From: an uncultured Candidatus Saccharibacteria bacterium
GTDB lineage: Bacteria; Patescibacteriota; Minisyncoccia; Minisyncoccales; GWA2-38-27
Assembly: GCA_964583485.1 (NCBI GenBank)
Contig: CAZOVC010000004.1
Coordinates: forward strand, 1 to 44,941
Reading direction: 5' to 3'
Length of the DNA stretch: 44,941 nucleotides
The translations under genes and the position numbers were made by a program. Positions 2,868 to 39,255 of the stretch are shown piece after piece. The notes below the pieces were generated by a model. That model did not search any database, was not told where the DNA came from, and saw nothing but the letters and a program-made list of their open reading frames with translations. Within the stretch, counting starts at the first letter, position 1; every line of letters begins with the position of its first letter.

Positions 2868-3266
2868 TTATTTTATCAGTTCCTTGAGCCGCTGCCACAG
2901 GGATTTCGTGGTTTTGGGTATTTCTTCTTTCATTTCTTGTGTTTCCTTTTTAAATTCCTCTTCAACTCCTGATTTTCTTTGTTCAACTTCTTTTCCTAAA
3001 AAAGAAAGAATCTTATACCAAATATTCTTAAACCATGGTGAAACATAATCTAGCATTTTTTTCCAAAAAACTAAAGATTCCTGCCAGGTTTTATTTAATA
3101 CTTCTGGAAAACCAGTTAAAATTCTCTGGCCCAATGTTTTTGCCTCTTCTAAGGTCTCCGGCGCTTGTGTAACTTCTTGAGCTAAAACATTAGGTATGGC
3201 AAAACTTAATAAAAAAGTGATTATCAAGCTTAATAAAACTATTTTTTTATAATAAAACATATGCAT
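2868..3266 (-). CDS. hypothetical secreted/membrane protein
   Basis: N-terminal signal-like hydrophobic segment ending VLA-QE; overlaps gltX stop. Confidence 0.75.
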   Translation of the reverse strand: MHMFYYKKIVLLSLIITFLLSFAIPNVLAQEVTQAPETLEEAKTLGQRILTGFPEVLNKTWQESLVFWKKMLDYVSPWFKNIWYKILSFLGKEVEQRKSGVEEEFKKETQEMKEEIPKTTKSLWQRLKELIK

Positions 3267-9520: not shown

Positions 9521-10330
9521 CTCTTCTCTATTATTACTAATAGTATGGACTATATCTTCACCCGCCACAACTTTTTAGACGTTGGCGGGGTTGGCGTATT
9601 ATAGTAGTTTGAACCTACTATCCCTTGATTTTCATCAAGAAGTCTCTACGGGGTCTCACTTAATTTATATCGCATTGTAGGAACTATATAAGGATTAATT
9701 ATTCTTCTAAATCTATCTGCACTTCCCGTTCTTATTCTAATTCTGTAATATATTTTATCTCGATTCAGTGAACTCTCAATTCCATACTCTTTTTTCAACG
9801 TTTCTATTAATCTTTTCTGAGACAAATAATCAAATCCTTGAGTGTTCAAGTAATAAGTTTTATAGGTTTTACTTCCATCATCCATAAACCATACTGCCAT
9901 TATCAATGAATTTAACTGAAATTCTGGCACAATCTTCTTTCCATTTTGATAAAACTTCTGATAAATTTCGGTCAAATCTGGATGTTGTCGAGTAGAAAAT
10001 CTATATGCTATTCTTGTTCCATTTCCTTTTCTTCGTCTCGGCGGAGTTATTACTATTCTTTTCAATGCTTGATATTTCCAATCTATATAGAATTTTTGTT
10101 TGATGCTACTATCAATCTCAAAAAGTGCGTTTTTTCTTCCGGGAACAATTCTTAAATATCCATCACCTAAAACTGATCCTACAATTATTGATTTTTCTTT
10201 TTTGGTGAGACTTCCCACGGTATTGTCCATTATTATATTTTAACATAAATTTTAATGGATTTCACCGTTATAAGCCACTTTTTTGTATGACATTACTGTC
10301 ATAAGACCCCGATTTGCCGGCAATACTTTG
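9521..10330 (-). mobile_element. group I intron (IA-type, extra P7.1/P7.2 hairpins) at about L2500
   Basis: splits GAGACCU|CGAUGUCGGC; IGS GGGUCUU pairs with exon GAGACCU with U-G at the splice site; R element CGUAGAGACU, S element GAAGAUAUAGUCC, terminal G. Confidence 0.93.
9646..10230 (-). CDS. intron-encoded double-motif LAGLIDADG homing endonuclease
   Basis: IVGSVLGDGYL and AVWFMDDGS motifs. Confidence 0.92.
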   Translation of the reverse strand: MDNTVGSLTKKEKSIIVGSVLGDGYLRIVPGRKNALFEIDSSIKQKFYIDWKYQALKRIVITPPRRRKGNGTRIAYRFSTRQHPDLTEIYQKFYQNGKKIVPEFQLNSLIMAVWFMDDGSKTYKTYYLNTQGFDYLSQKRLIETLKKEYGIESSLNRDKIYYRIRIRTGSADRFRRIINPYIVPTMRYKLSETP

Positions 10331-16639: not shown

Positions 16640-17458
16640 CTATTTATAACGTTGCCAATTGACTTTTGTGCCTCGTTTATTTTCAACCTGTTGACCGTCA
16701 GGTTTTTTGGCGAGGATTAAATATTTAAATCCTCTTAAAAAGAAATTAAATTTTTGAGCCCGGTAGTGCCAGACTCCGGTATTAGAGCTTTGACCTCTTC
16801 TTGTTACGCAAATCATATCTATAGGTTCAAATCCAGTTTTTTCTATCAAGGTCTCATAAATTTTAAAACCTACGGGGGTGAACTTTCTTTTTACCCATTG
16901 ATCTCCAATTAACCAACCTATAACCTTTCCTGGTTTTAAAACTCTGTAAATTTCTTTCGCTACTTTCTCTAATTCTTCATAAAAATTTGGGGCTTCTGCA
17001 GAAATTTTTCCGATATCCATCAATTCATCTGAATATTTGACATTGTCTCCATAAGGAGAATCTATGAAAACCATATCTACAGAATTCTCTTCAAGAGGAA
17101 TCTTACGAGAATCATTTTTAATAACTTTTGGATGTTGAGGATTAATATCATAACCAATTGCTTTTCTATCTTCCTCTTCGCATACATCAATTGTAGTTCC
17201 ACTTCCGGCCATCGGATCAATCACTAAATCTCCCGGTTTTGTGTAACGCTGAACCATATTCCAAATAATGAAAGCAGGAGTTACACCTTGAAATTTATTG
17301 TTACCTTTTGGCTTTTTACCATAACTTTGTCTTGGATAATCCCAAAGCGTAGTCGTTTCGAAAGACGGCTTTTCGTCCTCTATTTTTTCCTCCTTTAAAT
17401 TCTCTTTCAAGGGTAATATTTCCTTATTATTTTTTTTATTCTTTATTTCTTTTGGCAT
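16640..17458 (-). CDS. amino (N4-C/N6-A) DNA methyltransferase of a type II R-M pair
   Basis: SAM motif DPMAGSGTT, catalytic-like FIDSPY; overlaps upstream nuclease. Confidence 0.85.
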   Translation of the reverse strand: MPKEIKNKKNNKEILPLKENLKEEKIEDEKPSFETTTLWDYPRQSYGKKPKGNNKFQGVTPAFIIWNMVQRYTKPGDLVIDPMAGSGTTIDVCEEEDRKAIGYDINPQHPKVIKNDSRKIPLEENSVDMVFIDSPYGDNVKYSDELMDIGKISAEAPNFYEELEKVAKEIYRVLKPGKVIGWLIGDQWVKRKFTPVGFKIYETLIEKTGFEPIDMICVTRRGQSSNTGVWHYRAQKFNFFLRGFKYLILAKKPDGQQVENKRGTKVNWQRYK

Positions 17459-18137
17459 AAATTAAATTTTTTAAATCAATTAGAAATTTATCAAATTTTT
17501 TAACTTTCTCGCTTTCTTTAATTTCTTCCTCGCTCATCACATAACTTCCATCTGTATCAATTTCCACTATTGCTCTCCCTTTTTTAGCCGGTTCTCTAAC
17601 ACTTAAAGTTTTATCTTCATCTGGCGTAATAAAGAAAACTTTAATATGTTTAGTTACTTCATCTTGGTTAAGTTTTATTTTCCAATAACCGGTTTGCGCA
17701 ATTCTTTCTCTTAAAGTAACCTTGCTTGAAATTACAGCAATTATCTTATAATCTTCGGGGTTATAGATAATTATATCCACATCAGGCAAATGAGCACCAA
17801 ATTCACCATAATCAACTAAAAGATTTCTTTTTACTCGACTTAACTCCTTTGAAAGATTTTTACTATTTATCCTTTCTAAGGTATTTCCTTCTATTATTTT
17901 TAATCCTAATTTCTCTACTTCATCTTTAATAATATAAAGAATCAATTTCTCCAAATTCTTTCCTTTGAATGCTCTCCAAGATTGTTCATGATCTCCATTT
18001 GGCGTAGGCGACTTCAGCCAATCCTTTTTATGTAATTCTTTGCCTTCTCTCAATAATTCTGAGATATACTTAAAAGCATCGTTCCCATATTCTTCTTTTT
18101 TCTTTTCGTAAAGTTTTACTAAATCTTCAAATCTCAT
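17436..18137 (-). CDS. type II restriction endonuclease, BsaWI/Cfr10I-like
   Basis: EQSWRAFKGKNLE, PDVD, ISSKVTLRERIAQ pattern. Confidence 0.8.
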   Translation of the reverse strand: MRFEDLVKLYEKKKEEYGNDAFKYISELLREGKELHKKDWLKSPTPNGDHEQSWRAFKGKNLEKLILYIIKDEVEKLGLKIIEGNTLERINSKNLSKELSRVKRNLLVDYGEFGAHLPDVDIIIYNPEDYKIIAVISSKVTLRERIAQTGYWKIKLNQDEVTKHIKVFFITPDEDKTLSVREPAKKGRAIVEIDTDGSYVMSEEEIKESEKVKKFDKFLIDLKNLIYAKRNKE

Positions 18138-18210: not shown

Positions 18211-18235
18211 AAAAAAAAGCGAAACCTATCGCTTT
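18211..18235 (-). terminator. terminator after tRNA-Ile/greA/tRNA-Ala
   Basis: AAAGCGA/UCGCUUU stem plus U tract. Confidence 0.65.
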
Positions 18236-18344
18236 CGCCTCTCAATTTTTTGAATTAAATTTTTTGTATTCATATATAATAGTTTATCAAATTTGCAACT
18301 TTTTTTTCAAATAGACAGAATTGTCCCGATAATTTTTATGGTTG

Positions 18345-18416
18345 TGGACTCGGTGGGAATCGAACCCACGATCTTCGCATTGCAAATGCGACGTTCTGCC
18401 ACTAAACTACGAGCCC
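18345..18416 (-). tRNA. tRNA-Ala(UGC), CCA not encoded
   Basis: cloverleaf, anticodon loop UUUGCAA, G3-U70 pair. Confidence 0.95.
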
Positions 18417-18417
18417 G

Positions 18418-18870
18418 TTATTCAATTTTAAGAATTTTGCATTTAATCCTATTATCCCCTATCTTCTTTTCTATTTTATCTCCAACAGATTTATTCAAAA
18501 TAGCTTTACCTAAAGGCGACTCATAGGAGATTTTCCCATTTAACGAATCTACCTCGCCTGGCCCTACAATTTCAATGTTTTCTTCTTTTTCATCTAAAGA
18601 AATTAAAACTTTTGAACCAACTTGAACTTTTCCAGTTTGCCTATTTTCAACTATCTCTGCGCTATTAATTCTATTTTGAATTTCTAAAATCTTTCCTTGT
18701 AAAAATGCCTGTCTTTCTTTGGCATCTGTATAAGCTGCATTTTCTTTAAGATCGCCAAAAGAAGCAGTATGTTTAATAAGACCTGCTATTTCTTTTATCT
18801 TAACAGTTTTTAAGTAATTTAACTTCTTCTTAAGTTTTTCTAATCCTTCAGCAGTAATATATTCAGCCAT
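18418..18870 (-). CDS. greA: transcription elongation factor GreA
   Basis: ITAEGLEKL, GDLKENAAY, ISYESPLGKA; true start ATG 18870 (the longer ORF runs through tRNA-Ile). Confidence 0.93.
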   Translation of the reverse strand: MAEYITAEGLEKLKKKLNYLKTVKIKEIAGLIKHTASFGDLKENAAYTDAKERQAFLQGKILEIQNRINSAEIVENRQTGKVQVGSKVLISLDEKEENIEIVGPGEVDSLNGKISYESPLGKAILNKSVGDKIEKKIGDNRIKCKILKIE

Positions 18871-18872
18871 AG

Positions 18873-18944
18873 TGGGCGCGGAAGGAATCGAACCTTCAAC
18901 CTCTTCTTTATCAGAGAAGCGTTCTACCACTGAACTACGCGCCC
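18873..18944 (-). tRNA. tRNA-Ile(GAU), CCA not encoded
   Basis: cloverleaf, anticodon loop CUGAUAA. Confidence 0.95.
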
Positions 18945-18953
18945 GATATATGA

Positions 18954-18982
18954 ACTTTAGCAAAAAATAAAAAGCCTGTCAA
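18954..18982 (-). promoter_or_regulatory. promoter for tRNA-Ile-greA-tRNA-Ala
   Basis: TTGACA, 17 bp, TAAAGT. Confidence 0.65.
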
Positions 18983-19134: not shown

Positions 19135-20620
<1,486 letters not shown>

Positions 20621-20754: not shown

Positions 20755-20782
20755 ATTTTACTTTTTCAAAAAGGTTTGTCAA
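20755..20782 (-). promoter_or_regulatory. 16S promoter
   Basis: TTGACA, 16 bp, TAAAAT, directly after tRNA-Thr. Confidence 0.7.
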
Positions 20783-20783
20783 G

Positions 20784-20856
20784 AGCCGAGGAGAGGATTT
20801 GAACCCCCAAACCTTCGCTTTACAAAAGCGCTGCTCTACCATTGAGCTACCTCGGC
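20784..20856 (-). tRNA. tRNA-Thr(UGU)
   Basis: cloverleaf GCCGAGG/CCUCGGC, loop UUUGUAA. Confidence 0.9.
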
Positions 20857-20860
20857 AAAA

Positions 20861-21202
20861 TTACTTTCTTCCTCTTATTCTTTTCCAATAATCTTCTGAA
20901 AACTTCTTTCTATTCTCAATAGATTTCTGGCGCAGTTTAGATAATAAATTACTTGTTTTTTTATCGGTTTTTAAAGTAAGAATTCTAAACTTAGAAAGTA
21001 TTTTCTGCAATAATAATTCTTTAGAAGAAAAGGACTTAACTGTTCCATTATTTTTAATCTTATATCCGAGTTTCCTAAAAATCCTTGACCTTTTAATCTT
21101 TGTTTCCGGCAACTCATTCAAAACTGGAATCTTCTTAATTATAATAATACTCATACCTATAAACCCGATAAAAAATATAATTGTAGCAAATAATACTATC
21201 AT
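20861..21202 (-). CDS. hypothetical membrane-anchored basic protein
   Basis: N-terminal TM, Lys-rich; in tsf operon. Confidence 0.75.
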   Translation of the reverse strand: MIVLFATIIFFIGFIGMSIIIIKKIPVLNELPETKIKRSRIFRKLGYKIKNNGTVKSFSSKELLLQKILSKFRILTLKTDKKTSNLLSKLRQKSIENRKKFSEDYWKRIRGRK

Positions 21203-26004: not shown

Positions 26005-26736
26005 ATGCCGGAACAAAGTTCAGTAATAATAGAAATTCGGGCTGGAGCAGGCGGCGGAGAGGCTGCTCTTTTTGCCGCTGACTTGTTTAAAATGTATTCT
26101 AAGTATGCTGCTTCACAAAATTGGAAGCAGAAAACATTAGATTCTCATTCAACTGAATTAGGAGGAATCAAACAAATAACTTTTGAAATAAAGGGCGAAG
26201 ATACATTCTCTAAAATGAAATACGAAGCAGGAGTTCATCGGGTTCAAAGAATACCAGAAACAGAAAAATCAGGAAGAATTCATACCTCAACAGCAACAGT
26301 AGCTGTTCTTCCAAAACCAAAAACAACAGAAGTTAATATAAGGGAAGACCAGCTAAAAATTGATTTTTACAGAGCTTCGGGCCCAGGAGGTCAAAATGTT
26401 AATACAAGAGACACGGCAATCAGAATCACACATGTTCCAACTGGCTTAGTTGTTGCTTCTCAGACAGAAAGAAGCCAGTTTCAAAATAAAGAAAACGCAT
26501 TATCAATTTTATCAGCAAGATTATTAGAAAAAAAACAAACAGAAGAAATTTCCAAATTAGGTGGTGAAAGAAAAGCCCAGATTGGCTGGGCTATGAGAGC
26601 AGAAAAAATTAGAACCTATAATTTTCCGCAGGATAGAATCACCGACCACCGGATAAAAAAGAAATTCCACAACATTGAAGATATAATGAATGGAAAATTA
26701 GATAAGATGCTCAAAACCCTTCAAAAGAACCTTTAA
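26005..26736 (+). CDS. prfA: peptide chain release factor 1, N-terminally short
   Basis: EIRAGAGG, GVHRVQRIPET (PxT), SGPGGQ. Confidence 0.9.
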   Translation: MPEQSSVIIEIRAGAGGGEAALFAADLFKMYSKYAASQNWKQKTLDSHSTELGGIKQITFEIKGEDTFSKMKYEAGVHRVQRIPETEKSGRIHTSTATVAVLPKPKTTEVNIREDQLKIDFYRASGPGGQNVNTRDTAIRITHVPTGLVVASQTERSQFQNKENALSILSARLLEKKQTEEISKLGGERKAQIGWAMRAEKIRTYNFPQDRITDHRIKKKFHNIEDIMNGKLDKMLKTLQKNL

Positions 26737-32413: not shown

Positions 32414-34774
32414 TTATTTCTTTTTTGCTAAACTTAAAATTGTTTTGATTACTGTATCGGGATTTAAAGATATGCTTTCAATCCCTTGCTTTTGTAAAAA
32501 CTCTGCAAATTCTTCATATATTGAAGGCGCTTCGCCGCAGATTCCGCAGTATTTCTTCTTTTCTCGACAAATCTTAACAACCCTGCTAACCATTTCTTTT
32601 ACTGCTTCATTTCTTTCATCTCCAATATATGCAATTTGAGCATTATCTCTGTCTATGCCTAAAACTAATTGAGTAAGATCATTACTGCCAATAGACATAC
32701 CGTCAAAAATCTTCAAGAATTCTTCAGCTAAAATAACATTAGAAGGAATCTCGCACATCACATAAGTTTTTAGCTCACCGAGACCAAATTTTTTGATTAA
32801 ATCCTTTACTTTCTTGCCTTCTTCAATAGTTCTGCAAAACGGAACCATAACTGAAATATTTTCCAAGCCAAAAACATCTCTTGCCCTTTTTATTGCCTGA
32901 CATTCCATTTTAAAAGCCGGCTGAAAACTCTCATCAATATATCTGGAAGCTCCTCTAAAACCAAGCATTGGGTTTGACTCTTCTTTTTCAAAAAGTTCTC
33001 CGCCAATTAAATTTCTGTATTCATTAGTTTTAAAATCAGAAAATCTGACAATTACTTCTTTAGGATAAAAAGCAGCTCCTATCTGAGCAATTCCTTCAGC
33101 TAATTCTTTTATAAAGTACTCTTTTTTATCTTTATGTTCTATTGTTATCTGCCCAATTTTTTTCTTTAATTTTTTATTTTTTAAATCTTTATAGTGATAA
33201 AGTGCCAAAGGATGGACTTGAATTTTTTCAGCAATTATAAATTCTTCTCTGGTCAAACCCACGCCATTGTTGGGCAGAAATGAGGATTTGAAAGCGATTT
33301 CCGGCGCGCCGATATTGAGCATTATTTTTGTTTTTAAATTAGGAATCTTTTTTAAATCATATTCTTTAATCTCAAACAATATCTTGCCTTCAAAAACCCG
33401 GCCATTCAATCCTTGAGTGCAGTCAACAGTAACCATCCTGCCTGTTTTTAATATTTTGCTGGCATTTCTTGTTCCAACAATACTAGGAACACCGAGCTCA
33501 CGAGAAACTATTGCTGCATGACAAGTTTTTCCTCCTTCATCAGTAATAATTGCTGAAGCTAAGCGCATTATCGGCATCCAGTCAGGATCGGTCATTTTAG
33601 TTACTAAAACTTCTCCTTGTTTAAATTGACCAATCTTTGAAACATCAGAAATAACTCTTACCTTACCTGCGCCGATCTTATCGCCAATAGCAATGCCTGT
33701 TAAAATCGGTTTCTTTTTAGTTCTAATTTCATATTCTTTATAAGTTTTGCTGTTTTTTGGGGTATGAACTGTTTCAGGCCTTGACTGAACTATAAAAAGC
33801 TCGCCTGTTTTTCCGTCTTTAGCCCACTCAATATCCTGATGCTTTCCATAATGATCTTCAATTTTACAAGCCCATTGAGCCAAAACGAGAATATCTTTGT
33901 CATTCAAAGAAAATCTTAATTGATCTTTTTCTTTAACTTTTACTTCTTTTAATCCTCCTTTCTTGGCATAAATATACTTTTTAGTTTTCCTGCCTAAATT
34001 TTTAACAATTATTGATTTGAATCCTTTTTTAAGAGTTGGCTTAAAAACATAAAATTCATCAGGAGTAATCTTTCCTTTAACAATCATTTCCCCTATTCCC
34101 CAAATAGAATTAATTAAAACAACACCGGAAAAACCTGTCTCAGTATCCAAAGTAAAGATCACGCCGGAACAAGCCAGGTCGCTTCTAACCATTTTTTGAA
34201 CTCCAACTGAAAGAGCTATTTTTAAATGGTCAAATCCTTTTTCCTCACGATAAGAAATTGACCGGTCAGTAAATAAAGAAGCCATACATTTCTTAACAGA
34301 ATCCAATAACTGCTCTTCTCCCTTAACATTAAGAAATGTTTCCATCTGACCGGCAAAACTAGCAGTTGCCAAATCTTCAGCCGTAGCAGAAGAACGAACA
34401 GCTACGTCAACATTACTCTGCTTGTATTTCTTGCTAAGCTTTTTATATGATTTTATTATTTTCTTTCTTAAATCATTGGGAAATTCCGCATTAAGAATTA
34501 AATCTCTTGATGCTTTTCCGGTTTTTATTAAACTATCCAAGCTTTTAGGATTAAAGTTTTGGGAAATATTCTTTAATTCTTTATCAATTTTATTCTTTTT
34601 TAAAAAATACCAAAAGGACTTTGAAGTCAAACAAAAACCGTTTGGAATATTCACCTCTTGTTTAGTCAAACCCCTCACCATCTCGCCTAAAGAAGCATTC
34701 TTTCCCCCAACTAAAGCCCCGTCATCTTTATTTATTTCTTTATACCAAAGAATATATCTTAATTTTTTCAACAT
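32414..34774 (-). CDS. ppsA: phosphoenolpyruvate synthase
   Basis: VGGKNASLGEM, AVRSSATAED, QSRPETV, TCHAAIVSRE, SIGSNDLTQ. Confidence 0.97.
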   Translation of the reverse strand: MLKKLRYILWYKEINKDDGALVGGKNASLGEMVRGLTKQEVNIPNGFCLTSKSFWYFLKKNKIDKELKNISQNFNPKSLDSLIKTGKASRDLILNAEFPNDLRKKIIKSYKKLSKKYKQSNVDVAVRSSATAEDLATASFAGQMETFLNVKGEEQLLDSVKKCMASLFTDRSISYREEKGFDHLKIALSVGVQKMVRSDLACSGVIFTLDTETGFSGVVLINSIWGIGEMIVKGKITPDEFYVFKPTLKKGFKSIIVKNLGRKTKKYIYAKKGGLKEVKVKEKDQLRFSLNDKDILVLAQWACKIEDHYGKHQDIEWAKDGKTGELFIVQSRPETVHTPKNSKTYKEYEIRTKKKPILTGIAIGDKIGAGKVRVISDVSKIGQFKQGEVLVTKMTDPDWMPIMRLASAIITDEGGKTCHAAIVSRELGVPSIVGTRNASKILKTGRMVTVDCTQGLNGRVFEGKILFEIKEYDLKKIPNLKTKIMLNIGAPEIAFKSSFLPNNGVGLTREEFIIAEKIQVHPLALYHYKDLKNKKLKKKIGQITIEHKDKKEYFIKELAEGIAQIGAAFYPKEVIVRFSDFKTNEYRNLIGGELFEKEESNPMLGFRGASRYIDESFQPAFKMECQAIKRARDVFGLENISVMVPFCRTIEEGKKVKDLIKKFGLGELKTYVMCEIPSNVILAEEFLKIFDGMSIGSNDLTQLVLGIDRDNAQIAYIGDERNEAVKEMVSRVVKICREKKKYCGICGEAPSIYEEFAEFLQKQGIESISLNPDTVIKTILSLAKKK

Positions 34775-38554: not shown

Positions 38555-39255
38555 ATTTCAGCGGGTTGATTATTTGTTAATTCACAAATTAAGCTAGTTA
38601 GGTTTTTTGCTTCTTGCTCTTGCCCTGAATTTTCTCCCGAACCAACTCTATAATATTTGCATCCTAAGACTAAAGCTGGAACGCCTCCATCACTGTATTT
38701 TTCAAAAATATCCGCATCGTTATCCAAACTTATATTATTATGAAATGATATATATCCCTCAAATTCCGATGCTACTTTTTCAATAATTGGACGCTCCCAG
38801 ATGCAATGAGGACAGGTCTCAGAACCAAAAAAATAAACAATTGGTTTATCATCTTCCATACAAATCTCATCACTGCTTACTGAAAAATTCCCGATTGTCT
38901 GATTTGTCTCTTCTGCCGATGCTTCAATCTCTATTAAATCAATTACCTGTGGAAAAATAAGTTTTCCATTTTTTGTTATACGCCACTCTACTTCTTCTTC
39001 TTCAACTTTAAACCTAACTTTATACAACCCATCTTCTTCTAATGTTTCTATCAAAGAAATAGGAGTTTGTCCTTGCAGGATATTTTCATCAATAAAACTT
39101 ATTACTCTTTCGCCTGCTTCTTCTAAAGACAAAACCTCTCCTTGCTCTTTTATTGCTTCTTCTGCTGAAGACCTTATATAATTAGTGTAAATAATTACTC
39201 CGGTAATTAAAAGACCAACTGCAATAATAACGACTGGTATTGTTTTGTTATTCAT
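38542..39255 (-). CDS. membrane-anchored thioredoxin-fold protein
   Basis: N-terminal TM; CPHC and GVP. Confidence 0.8.
   Translation of the reverse strand: MNNKTIPVVIIAVGLLITGVIIYTNYIRSSAEEAIKEQGEVLSLEEAGERVISFIDENILQGQTPISLIETLEEDGLYKVRFKVEEEEVEWRITKNGKLIFPQVIDLIEIEASAEETNQTIGNFSVSSDEICMEDDKPIVYFFGSETCPHCIWERPIIEKVASEFEGYISFHNNISLDNDADIFEKYSDGGVPALVLGCKYYRVGSGENSGQEQEAKNLTSLICELTNNQPAEICQK

Follow-up and report, generated by a model that had tools for sequence, protein, structure and literature searches.

How is a protein-coding gene expressed when a tRNA gene is pressed against each of its ends? This question is raised by a 44,941-nucleotide stretch of a Parcubacteria (Paceibacterota) genome (GenBank contig CAZOVC010000004.1; the whole stretch is hereafter called the window), in which greA, the gene of a transcription fidelity factor, lies between tRNA-Ile and tRNA-Ala. 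Our favoured answer, held with moderate confidence, is that excision of the tRNAs would yield a near-leaderless greA mRNA that is translated as such. The junctions are composed as follows:

18944 to 18873, minus strand: tRNA-Ile(GAU), 72 nt, with G1 at 18944 and the discriminator A at 18873 (Rfam, 78.7 bits).
18872 to 18871, minus strand: spacer CU, 2 nt, between the tRNA-Ile discriminator and the greA AUG.
18870 to 18418, minus strand: greA, 150 aa, with the ATG at 18870-18868 and the TAA at 18420-18418.
18417, minus strand: spacer C, 1 nt, between the greA TAA and G1 of tRNA-Ala.
18416 to 18345, minus strand: tRNA-Ala(UGC), 72 nt, with G1 at 18416 and the discriminator A at 18345 (Rfam, 73.9 bits).

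The minus strand thus reads tatatc, tRNA-Ile (GGGCGCG...CGCGCCC-A), CT, the greA frame (ATG GCT GAA...GAA TAA), C, tRNA-Ala (GGGCTCG...CGAGTCC-A) and caacc. The initial annotation had placed CU between the tRNA-Ile discriminator (18873) and the greA ATG (18870), and one base between the greA TAA (18418) and G1 of tRNA-Ala (18416); both junctions are correct to the base. Rfam sets the tRNA ends at the same positions as a direct reading of the sequence. ARAGORN, which calls Ile(GAT), Ala(TGC) and Thr(TGT), gives ends one base longer because it counts in the C after the discriminator. Both flanking tRNAs match the covariance model (78.7 and 73.9 bits, where the gathering score is 29) with correct anticodons and intact stems, and tRNA-Ala has the G3:U70 pair. 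The bases 3' of the discriminator are CTA (Ile), CAA (Ala) and CTT (Thr), and none of the three window tRNAs encodes CCA, as had been claimed for the two beside greA; their CCA would therefore be added after transcription.

Two further elements bound the unit:

18954 to 18982, minus strand: promoter-like TTGACA-17-TAAAGT with a TG before it, sigma-70-like, ending 9 nt before G1 of tRNA-Ile.
18214 to 18243, minus strand: strong hairpin resembling an intrinsic terminator, trailed by nine T; its distance from tRNA-Ala is about 100 nt.

The hairpin (18243-18214) is likely the end of the transcription unit, and no terminator is predicted between the tRNA-Ile promoter and tRNA-Ala.

The explanation that we favour starts from a compact transcription unit of the stable-RNA type in the former 16S-23S spacer, with the predicted order promoter, a leader of about 2-5 nt, tRNA-Ile, CU, greA, C, tRNA-Ala, about 100 nt, and terminator. 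We infer that tRNA-Ile, greA and tRNA-Ala are co-transcribed from the predicted promoter as one precursor, in which RNase P would cut exactly 5' of each tRNA G1. In other bacteria, transcripts of CCA-less tRNA genes are cleaved at the discriminator by an RNase Z-type activity, CCA is then added, and the RNA beyond the cut is left with a 5' phosphate. As the tRNA genes here lack CCA, we expect an RNase Z-type endonucleolytic cut at or next to the discriminator, and then CCA addition. The released message would be 5'-P-CUAUG...UAAC-3'OH, 456 nt long, starting 0-2 nt before the AUG and ending 1 nt after the UAA; a cut before or after the C that follows the discriminator would leave a leader of 2 or 1 nt (1 or 0 nt in a related locus, L101). 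This message would then initiate in the leaderless manner, independently of pairing between Shine-Dalgarno (SD) and anti-Shine-Dalgarno (aSD) sequences. The attached tRNA-Ala is probably a temporary 3' cap that protects the greA message, so that the RNase P cut at tRNA-Ala would both mature the tRNA and start the decay of the message; this is expected because secG mRNA freed in Escherichia coli decays in less than 30 s. GreA output would accordingly depend on the tRNA promoter and on the kinetics of tRNA processing.

Is the arrangement peculiar to one genome? Related loci (numbered from L001) were gathered by a genome-collection scan, whose listed matches have at most 57% identity, and by a metagenome scan and twelve exact-protein look-ups, which supplied the closer relatives; all counts of loci given here are among the matches listed. 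The database names of these relatives are Parcubacteria or Paceibacterota. The order tRNA-Ile, greA, tRNA-Ala is found in 17 loci besides the window, with the following gaps (discriminator to ATG / stop codon to G1, in nt):

Window and L081 (a near-identical copy): 2 / 1.
L082: 2 / 7.
L083: 2 / 8.
L085: 2 / 10.
L087: 2 / 10 (internal stop in greA).
L088: 2 / 50.
L099: 2 / 0.
L103: 2 / 80.
L105: 2 / 3.
L101: 1 / 2.
L097: 13 / 0.
L106: 18 / 125.
L096: 20 / 0.
L100: 30 / 24.
L001: 43 / 1.
L104: about 90 / 0.
L095: about 93 / 2.

Across the 17 loci the 5' gap is 2 nt in nine, 1 nt in one and 13-93 nt in seven. Ten loci have a 3' gap of 0-3 nt, and elsewhere it reaches up to 125 nt. Abutment within a few nt on both sides is seen in the window (2/1), L099 (2/0) and L101 (1/2). 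All 2-nt spacers between tRNA-Ile and greA are CT, and L101 reads A-C-ATG. The A-CT-ATG junction occurs in four lineages, namely the window clade, L099, L103 and L105. The GreA sequences of the latter three are about 60% identical to that of the window, a divergence at which saturation of synonymous sites is expected. A rough neighbour-joining tree (with L099, L103 and L101; L105 not included) places these apart from the window clade. Within the close clade the synonymous divergence (dS) is only 0.13-0.33, which makes CT conservation there weak evidence by itself; the argument therefore rests on the distant lineages. Since L099, L103 and L105 also carry the CT spacer, the junction is either old or recurrent. 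With the unit present in 17 other loci, and the exact A-CT-ATG in four separate lineages, the tight junctions are not a chance arrangement.

The tight junction is tolerated or used, not obligatory, because three relatives with 86-89% GreA identity (L084, L089, L090) use an ordinary leader of about 40 nt and seven loci have spacers of 13-93 nt. These three have lost tRNA-Ile and have their own promoter, and still read CACT-ATG before greA; remnants of the junction are also seen in L091 (CCACT-ATG) and in L095 (CCCACTATAAAT-ATG behind an inserted hairpin element). The Ile-greA-Ala spacing, whose conservation the initial annotation had proposed to check, is thus kept at the 2-nt and 1-nt loci and lost at the seven longer 5' spacers, in the 3' spacers with their range of 0-125 nt, and in the three close relatives without tRNA-Ile.

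The promoter of tRNA-Ile (TTGACA-17-TAnAAT) occupies the same place in L082-L088, L099 and L103, and the -35 element is weaker (TTTACA) in L105; in the window and all of these, the promoter-like site ends up at a distance of 9-12 nt from tRNA-Ile. A conserved promoter before tRNA-Ile and a terminator after tRNA-Ala support the view that greA is tied to the tRNA transcription unit. Of all parts of the unit, the linkage of greA to tRNA-Ala is conserved most widely (about 27 loci). A Staskawiczbacteria-like clade (L003, L012, L017, L031, L036, L040, L056, L058, L064) has 16S, greA and tRNA-Ala without tRNA-Ile, and stop-to-tRNA-Ala gaps of 4-52 nt. Two "tRNA-???" calls upstream of greA in L040 and L064 were rejected as tRNA-Ile, being tRNA-Cys-like genes followed by a terminator. 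Where the flank suffices, 16S usually lies upstream of the unit and 23S downstream; L083 has no 16S within 2 kb of tRNA-Ile.

No CCA is encoded in the tRNA-Ile and tRNA-Thr genes of the clade or in the near-clade tRNA-Ala genes. A C follows the discriminator in almost every clade tRNA, the exceptions being the tRNA-Ala genes of L088 and L100 (T). Several Staskawiczbacteria-like tRNA-Ala genes and that of L095 do encode CCA. Compared with L082, L083, L085 and L088, the window is 93-96% identical in tRNA-Ile and 92-93% in greA (nucleotide), but identity falls to 71-79% in the tRNA-Ala that abuts greA, and the promoter region diverges as well. The similarity block ends at or near both junctions, which suggests that a tRNA-Ile-greA block has been recombined or exchanged.

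Three irregularities were seen among these relatives. In L001 (3950-3991), L095 (about 55-145) and L104 (about 2911-3000), what lengthens the spacer from tRNA-Ile to greA is a shared hairpin (AACGTAATAAATTTT...AAAATTTAAACGTT); it may be a palindromic element that was inserted, or a structure with a role in processing or regulation. Between its intact tRNA-Ile and greA, L106 (about 2920-3000) holds a second, partial 3' half of tRNA-Ile 18 nt before the greA ATG, left over from a rearrangement at this junction. The greA of L087 (1176-1436) has an in-frame TAG at codon 87 (TCAAAG to TCATAG), reflecting a pseudogene or an assembly error.

The tight tRNA junction is not specific to greA. L017 (762-1908) has greA, 4 nt, tRNA-Ala, CT and the ATG of ychF, the predicted YchF N-terminus being canonical (MSLSIGIVGLPNVGKS). 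In L100 (3481-4053), TT stands between tRNA-Ala and the start codon (ATG) of a 165-aa protein similar to substrate-binding (S) components of ECF transporters. Stop codons 0-4 nt from a tRNA are seen again at a small open reading frame (ORF) before tRNA-Thr.

How could a ribosome start directly behind a tRNA? At minimum energy the precursor is predicted to fold into the tRNA-Ile cloverleaf, whose acceptor helix stops 3 nt short of the AUG, so that the unprocessed precursor would offer no single-stranded landing site. The 3' tail of the window 16S rRNA (19137-19150, minus strand) reads GGATCATCTCATAT against the bacterial consensus GGATCACCTCCTTA, the CCUCC core being gone. Among the 16S tails covered (window, L003, L017, L031, L036, L040, L056, L058, L064, L087, L096, L097, L099, L100, L103, L104 and L106), the aSD loss is graded, with GGATCATCTCCTAT in L096, L097, L099 and L103, GGATCATTTCATTT in L100 and GGATCATTTTTTT in the Staskawiczbacteria-like loci. 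An SD 5-mer match at -20 to -4 is found in 0 of 33 window genes, and GGAG or GAGG in 1 of 33; the 20 nt upstream of the window genes are 80% A+T. The start codon is ATG in the window greA and at all 44 related junctions at which it was read (out of 107 loci fetched), and the upstream sequence is a tRNA acceptor stem. With neither a landing site on the precursor nor SD pairing to compensate, release of the 5' end followed by leaderless-type initiation would be the most likely course.

Promoters that abut start codons bear on the same point. A -10-like hexamer ends 6-8 nt before the ATG in 7 of 34 window genes (TATAAT-7 nt-ATG at 18137; TATAAT-8 nt-ATG at 34774 and 37257; TTGACT-17-TATACT-7 nt-ATG at 39255), so that transcription would start on or next to the AUG; the sample being small and the sequence AT-rich, this is suggestive. 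The evidence is stronger for greA itself: TTGAAA-16/17-TAAAAT/TACAAT/TAAGAT ends 5-8 nt before the ATG in 6 of 10 sister-clade loci (L012, L017, L031, L040, L058 and L064, in the 70 nt upstream of greA). Shuffled controls gave a mean of 0.13 such loci and a maximum of 2 in 2000, and there were zero matches when the search interval was slid by 9-24 nt. Because of this promoter position, the sister-clade greA is predicted to be leaderless by transcription start. In the window clade, tRNA-Ile seems to sit where the sister-clade greA promoter sits, leaving 2 nt.

Several points weigh against a near-leaderless message. The leader would be 2 nt and not 0, and extra 5' bases reduce leaderless translation in E. 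coli. A message ending 1 nt past its stop codon could be a target of rescue by transfer-messenger RNA (tmRNA). The base C74 disfavours RNase Z in Bacillus subtilis, and as a C follows the discriminator in nearly all these tRNAs, the exact cut site is uncertain. Searches of RNA runs with the window and L085 returned one run each, of unrelated tRNA-like fragments only, and no transcript ends were found in them; coverage of the region was of DNA type in X1 and limited to tRNA and 16S pieces in X25. Genes for RNase Z, the CCA-adding enzyme, the RNase P RNA and protein, and tmRNA were not found in the 45-kb window, which is uninformative for the whole genome. The greA of L084, L089 and L090 is served by its own promoter and a leader of about 40 nt, and the 13-93-nt spacers of seven loci count on the same side. 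Finally, the E. coli secG mRNA freed by RNase P has a half-life of less than 30 s (PMC2241853).

The last point leads to an alternative which we consider unlikely but worth keeping in sight: the translated RNA would be partly processed, with tRNA-Ile removed and tRNA-Ala, or the 3' part up to the terminator, still attached as a stabiliser, and the species devoid of untranslated regions (UTRs) would be a short-lived decay intermediate. Besides secG-leuU, where the RNase P cut triggers the decay of the upstream mRNA in less than 30 s (PMC2241853), the longer 3' spacers of L100, L088 and L103 favour it, as they form hairpins of the kind that protects 3' ends, and so does the wide conservation of the greA/tRNA-Ala link (about 27 loci). 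On the other hand, gaps of 0-1 nt leave no room for a protective structure after RNase P cleavage, and tRNA-Ala must mature. This alternative differs from the favoured excision of a near-leaderless message in timing only, and the 5' cut at tRNA-Ile is needed in both.

Rather improbable, in our judgement, is neutral genome compaction, under which the junctions would play no part in how greA is expressed, its expression would be adequate in spite of them, and another layout would serve as well provided that greA stayed in the old rRNA spacer. The variability of the spacers (5' 1-93 nt, 3' 0-125 nt) fits such a process, as do the exchange of tRNA-Ile for an ordinary promoter and leader in three close relatives and the packing of the window throughout, with 4 nt between an ORF and tRNA-Thr and 1 nt between tRNA-Thr and a -35 hexamer. 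It does not account for the recurrence of CT and of the 2-nt length in four lineages at saturated synonymous divergence, and again at the tRNA-Ala/ychF junction. The ratio of nonsynonymous to synonymous divergence (dN/dS) of greA is 0.1-0.45 among close relatives, indicating that the gene is under purifying selection, and initiation 3 nt from a tRNA helix would still need a way.

Very improbable is a third possibility, that the two products have mutually exclusive fates: 3' trimming of tRNA-Ile would destroy the 5' end of greA, each transcript would give either tRNA-Ile or greA RNA, and their ratio would act as a regulatory switch. The combination of a downstream endonuclease cut and exonuclease trimming, as in E. 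coli, does exist in bacteria, but that pathway is typical of CCA-encoding tRNA genes, unlike these. One product would be wasted per transcript, and translation from an unprocessed, tRNA-capped 5' end would be left unexplained.

The start codon itself is well placed. The greA ORF holds both Pfam domains at full length, the N-terminal coiled-coil PF03449 (E-value = 4e-23) and the C-terminal globular PF01272 (E-value = 5.8e-20), and its alignment with E. coli GreA (1grj) spans residues 5-150 (E-value = 4e-21). The tip of the coiled-coil reads GDLKENAAY against GDLKENAEY in E. coli, and D40 and E43 are invariant in an alignment across 29 relatives; the acidic tip residues (D41 and E44 in E. coli) are the catalytic ones. 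More than 500 GreA homologues are mostly 148-154 aa long, and an alignment of 29 homologues starts within 3 residues of the ATG at 18870. Because residue 4 matches profile position 2 and the ORF has no internal Met, we take this ATG as the start of greA. A 181-aa ORF from a TTG at 18963, the sole in-frame start further upstream, which reads through tRNA-Ile and the promoter, was rejected as greA, and an antisense 77-aa ORF (18293-18526, plus strand) overlapping tRNA-Ala and greA was treated as spurious. An annotation artefact, with the true start elsewhere or the flanking tRNAs being pseudogenes, can be dismissed: the 181-aa ORF is formally present and 170-aa versions of GreA are called in some databases, but the extension would cross tRNA-Ile and its promoter, the homologues, Pfam and 1grj align from the first few residues (4-5 for the latter two) of a protein that lacks internal Met, and both tRNAs score 74-79 bits with stems and identity elements intact.

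The initial annotation had likened the arrangement to the tRNA punctuation of mitochondria. Geometry, recurrence, loss of the aSD and SD sequences, abutting promoters and the ychF junction all speak for near-leaderless punctuation, and the only partly conserved spacing speaks against it; a stable, fully excised UTR-less mRNA is not a given in view of secG-leuU (PMC2241853). The likeness is drawn here from sequence and from the comparison of loci. Mitochondrial punctuation was reportedly set out by Ojala, Montoya and Attardi in 1981. As there, a coding message is directly flanked by tRNAs, tRNA-processing enzymes would define both mRNA ends, and a leaderless, UTR-less mRNA would meet a translation system devoid of SD pairing. 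Unlike there, we deal with a bacterial chromosome and with a single gene having its own predicted promoter and terminator rather than a genome-length polycistron; the stop codon is complete and needs no polyadenylation, a 2-nt leader is left, and relatives tolerate up to 93 nt.

Within bacteria, the E. coli operons thrU-tyrU-glyT-thrT-tufB and metY-rimP-nusA-infB have tRNA genes upstream of, and co-transcribed with, genes of the expression machinery, nusA itself encoding a transcription elongation factor. Those operons differ in their long spacers, SD-led translation and encoded CCA, and tRNA excision there sets no start context. Leaderless mRNAs made by cleavage have a precedent in those generated by MazF, reportedly described by Vesper in 2011. 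Like the leaderless mRNAs of Actinobacteria, Deinococcus and archaea (PMC4633059, PMC4681348), the greA message would lack an SD site and would start at its AUG or a few nt before it. Unlike leaderless and MazF-generated mRNAs, it would owe its 5' end to tRNA 3' maturation, and would carry a 5' monophosphate and a leader of 1-2 nt. The closest parallel for the 3' end is E. coli secG-leuU (PMC2241853), in which an mRNA and then a tRNA share one transcript and a single RNase P cut makes both ends; the spacer there measures 14 nt (0-1 nt here), no tRNA precedes secG, whose leader is of the ordinary kind, and the rapid degradation of the freed secG mRNA is a caution for any stable excised greA mRNA. 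Our search of the literature library available found no description of greA between spacer tRNAs, of bacterial tRNA punctuation or of 0-2-nt tRNA-gene junctions, nor of aSD loss or leaderless initiation in Parcubacteria or Patescibacteria. As bacterial co-transcription of tRNA and mRNA, and punctuation as such, are already known, what would be new here is a variant of them.

If the near-leaderless reading is true, tRNA punctuation, regarded as a mitochondrial hallmark, would also have evolved in a large uncultured bacterial group that abandoned SD initiation. It would provide a concrete, testable case of a leaderless mRNA arising from tRNA 3' processing and not from transcription start, and a transcription fidelity factor would be expressed in fixed proportion to tRNA output. 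More tentatively, a Parcubacteria branch without SD pairing may regularly use tRNA excision to make near-leaderless mRNAs and 3' ends, with the discriminator-CU-AUG register serving several genes (greA, ychF, the transporter component) and the supply of GreA set by tRNA synthesis and processing. That would be a free-standing bacterial counterpart of mitochondrial tRNA punctuation. For annotation, gene callers already mis-start this greA inside the tRNA (170-181-aa versions), and annotation of Candidate Phyla Radiation (CPR) genomes should permit starts 1-2 nt after a tRNA and not lean on ribosome-binding-site models.

Where do the two tRNAs come from? The surroundings of the unit comprise the following features:

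22466 to 21654, minus strand: rpsB, upstream of tsf.
21651 to 21205, minus strand: tsf, between rpsB and the next ORF.
20861 to 21202, minus strand: ORF113 (113 aa), the last gene after rpsB/tsf, with its TAA 4 nt before tRNA-Thr.
20784 to 20856, minus strand: tRNA-Thr(UGU), without encoded CCA (Rfam, 63.1 bits).
20755 to 20782, minus strand: promoter-like TTGACA-16-TAAAAT upstream of 16S, 11/12 matches.
20621 to 19137, minus strand: 16S rRNA (Rfam).
12840 to 9137, minus strand: 23S rRNA (Rfam), with a LAGLIDADG ORF (10230-9646) inside.
9100 to 8992, minus strand: 5S rRNA (Rfam), with 23S the other half of a split rRNA operon.

The gene order is thus rpsB, tsf, ORF113, tRNA-Thr, promoter, 16S, promoter, tRNA-Ile, greA, tRNA-Ala and terminator, followed by a BsaWI-like restriction enzyme, a DNA methylase, HD, NUDIX, SPFH and MscS-like proteins, 23S and 5S. 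As 16S, 23S and 5S all lie on the minus strand around them, tRNA-Ile and tRNA-Ala are the pair classically found in the spacer of an rRNA operon, here one whose parts have been drawn away from each other. The canonical spacer, 16S-tRNA-Ile(GAU)-tRNA-Ala(UGC)-23S, has the same two tRNAs in the same order and on the same strand. Here, unlike in the canonical spacer, greA stands between the tRNAs, and the unit opens with a promoter and closes with a terminator of its own, both predicted. 16S and 23S are 6.3 kb apart; beyond tRNA-Ala come the predicted terminator and then six protein genes before 23S is reached. Of the short linked unit 16S-tRNA-Ile-tRNA-Ala-23S-5S, only order and strand are kept. 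It is known that CPR rRNA spacers hold tRNAs and protein genes (PMC8172020), a report which does not mention greA or abutting junctions, and split or gene-bearing CPR rRNA operons are treated in a preprint (bioRxiv 10.1101/705046).

The 4-nt gap between the ORF at 20861 and tRNA-Thr, pointed out in the initial annotation, is real (ORF 21202-20861; G1 of tRNA-Thr at 20856). The block rpsB-tsf-small ORF-tRNA-Thr also precedes 16S in L096, L099, L100, L103, L104 and L105, and the gap between the small ORF and tRNA-Thr is 1 nt in L096, 20 in L099, 2 in L100 and 1 in L103. The 16S promoter has its -35 element (TTGACA) 1 nt past the discriminator of tRNA-Thr, and it is apparently this tRNA rather than a terminator that closes the rpsB-tsf-ORF113 operon (20755-20863, minus strand).

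Some other features of the window deserve mention. DNA runs holding the window sequence are salt-marsh metagenomes. The 23S gene is about 780 nt longer than the model, and the LAGLIDADG homing endonuclease ORF (9646-10230) makes an intron likely; group I introns are also found in the 16S of L001 and L040. Between tRNA-Ala and 23S, overlapping ORFs (16640-18137, minus strand) are inserted, one for a type II restriction enzyme similar to BsaWI and one for an N4/N6 DNA methylase, with TATAAT 7 nt before the ATG of the restriction gene (18137). After tRNA-Ala (18214-18310, minus strand), a promoter-like TTGAAA-18-TAAACT lies 7 nt before an ATG; the mini-ORF that starts there has 15 codons (MNTKNLIQKIERRKR) and extends into the terminator hairpin, an arrangement that may be due to chance. 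On the plus strand (26005-26736), a class I release factor of only 243 aa lacks roughly 100 residues at the start of the PCRF region (domain 1), and its ATG lies 1 nt after the stop codon of rpmE (L31).

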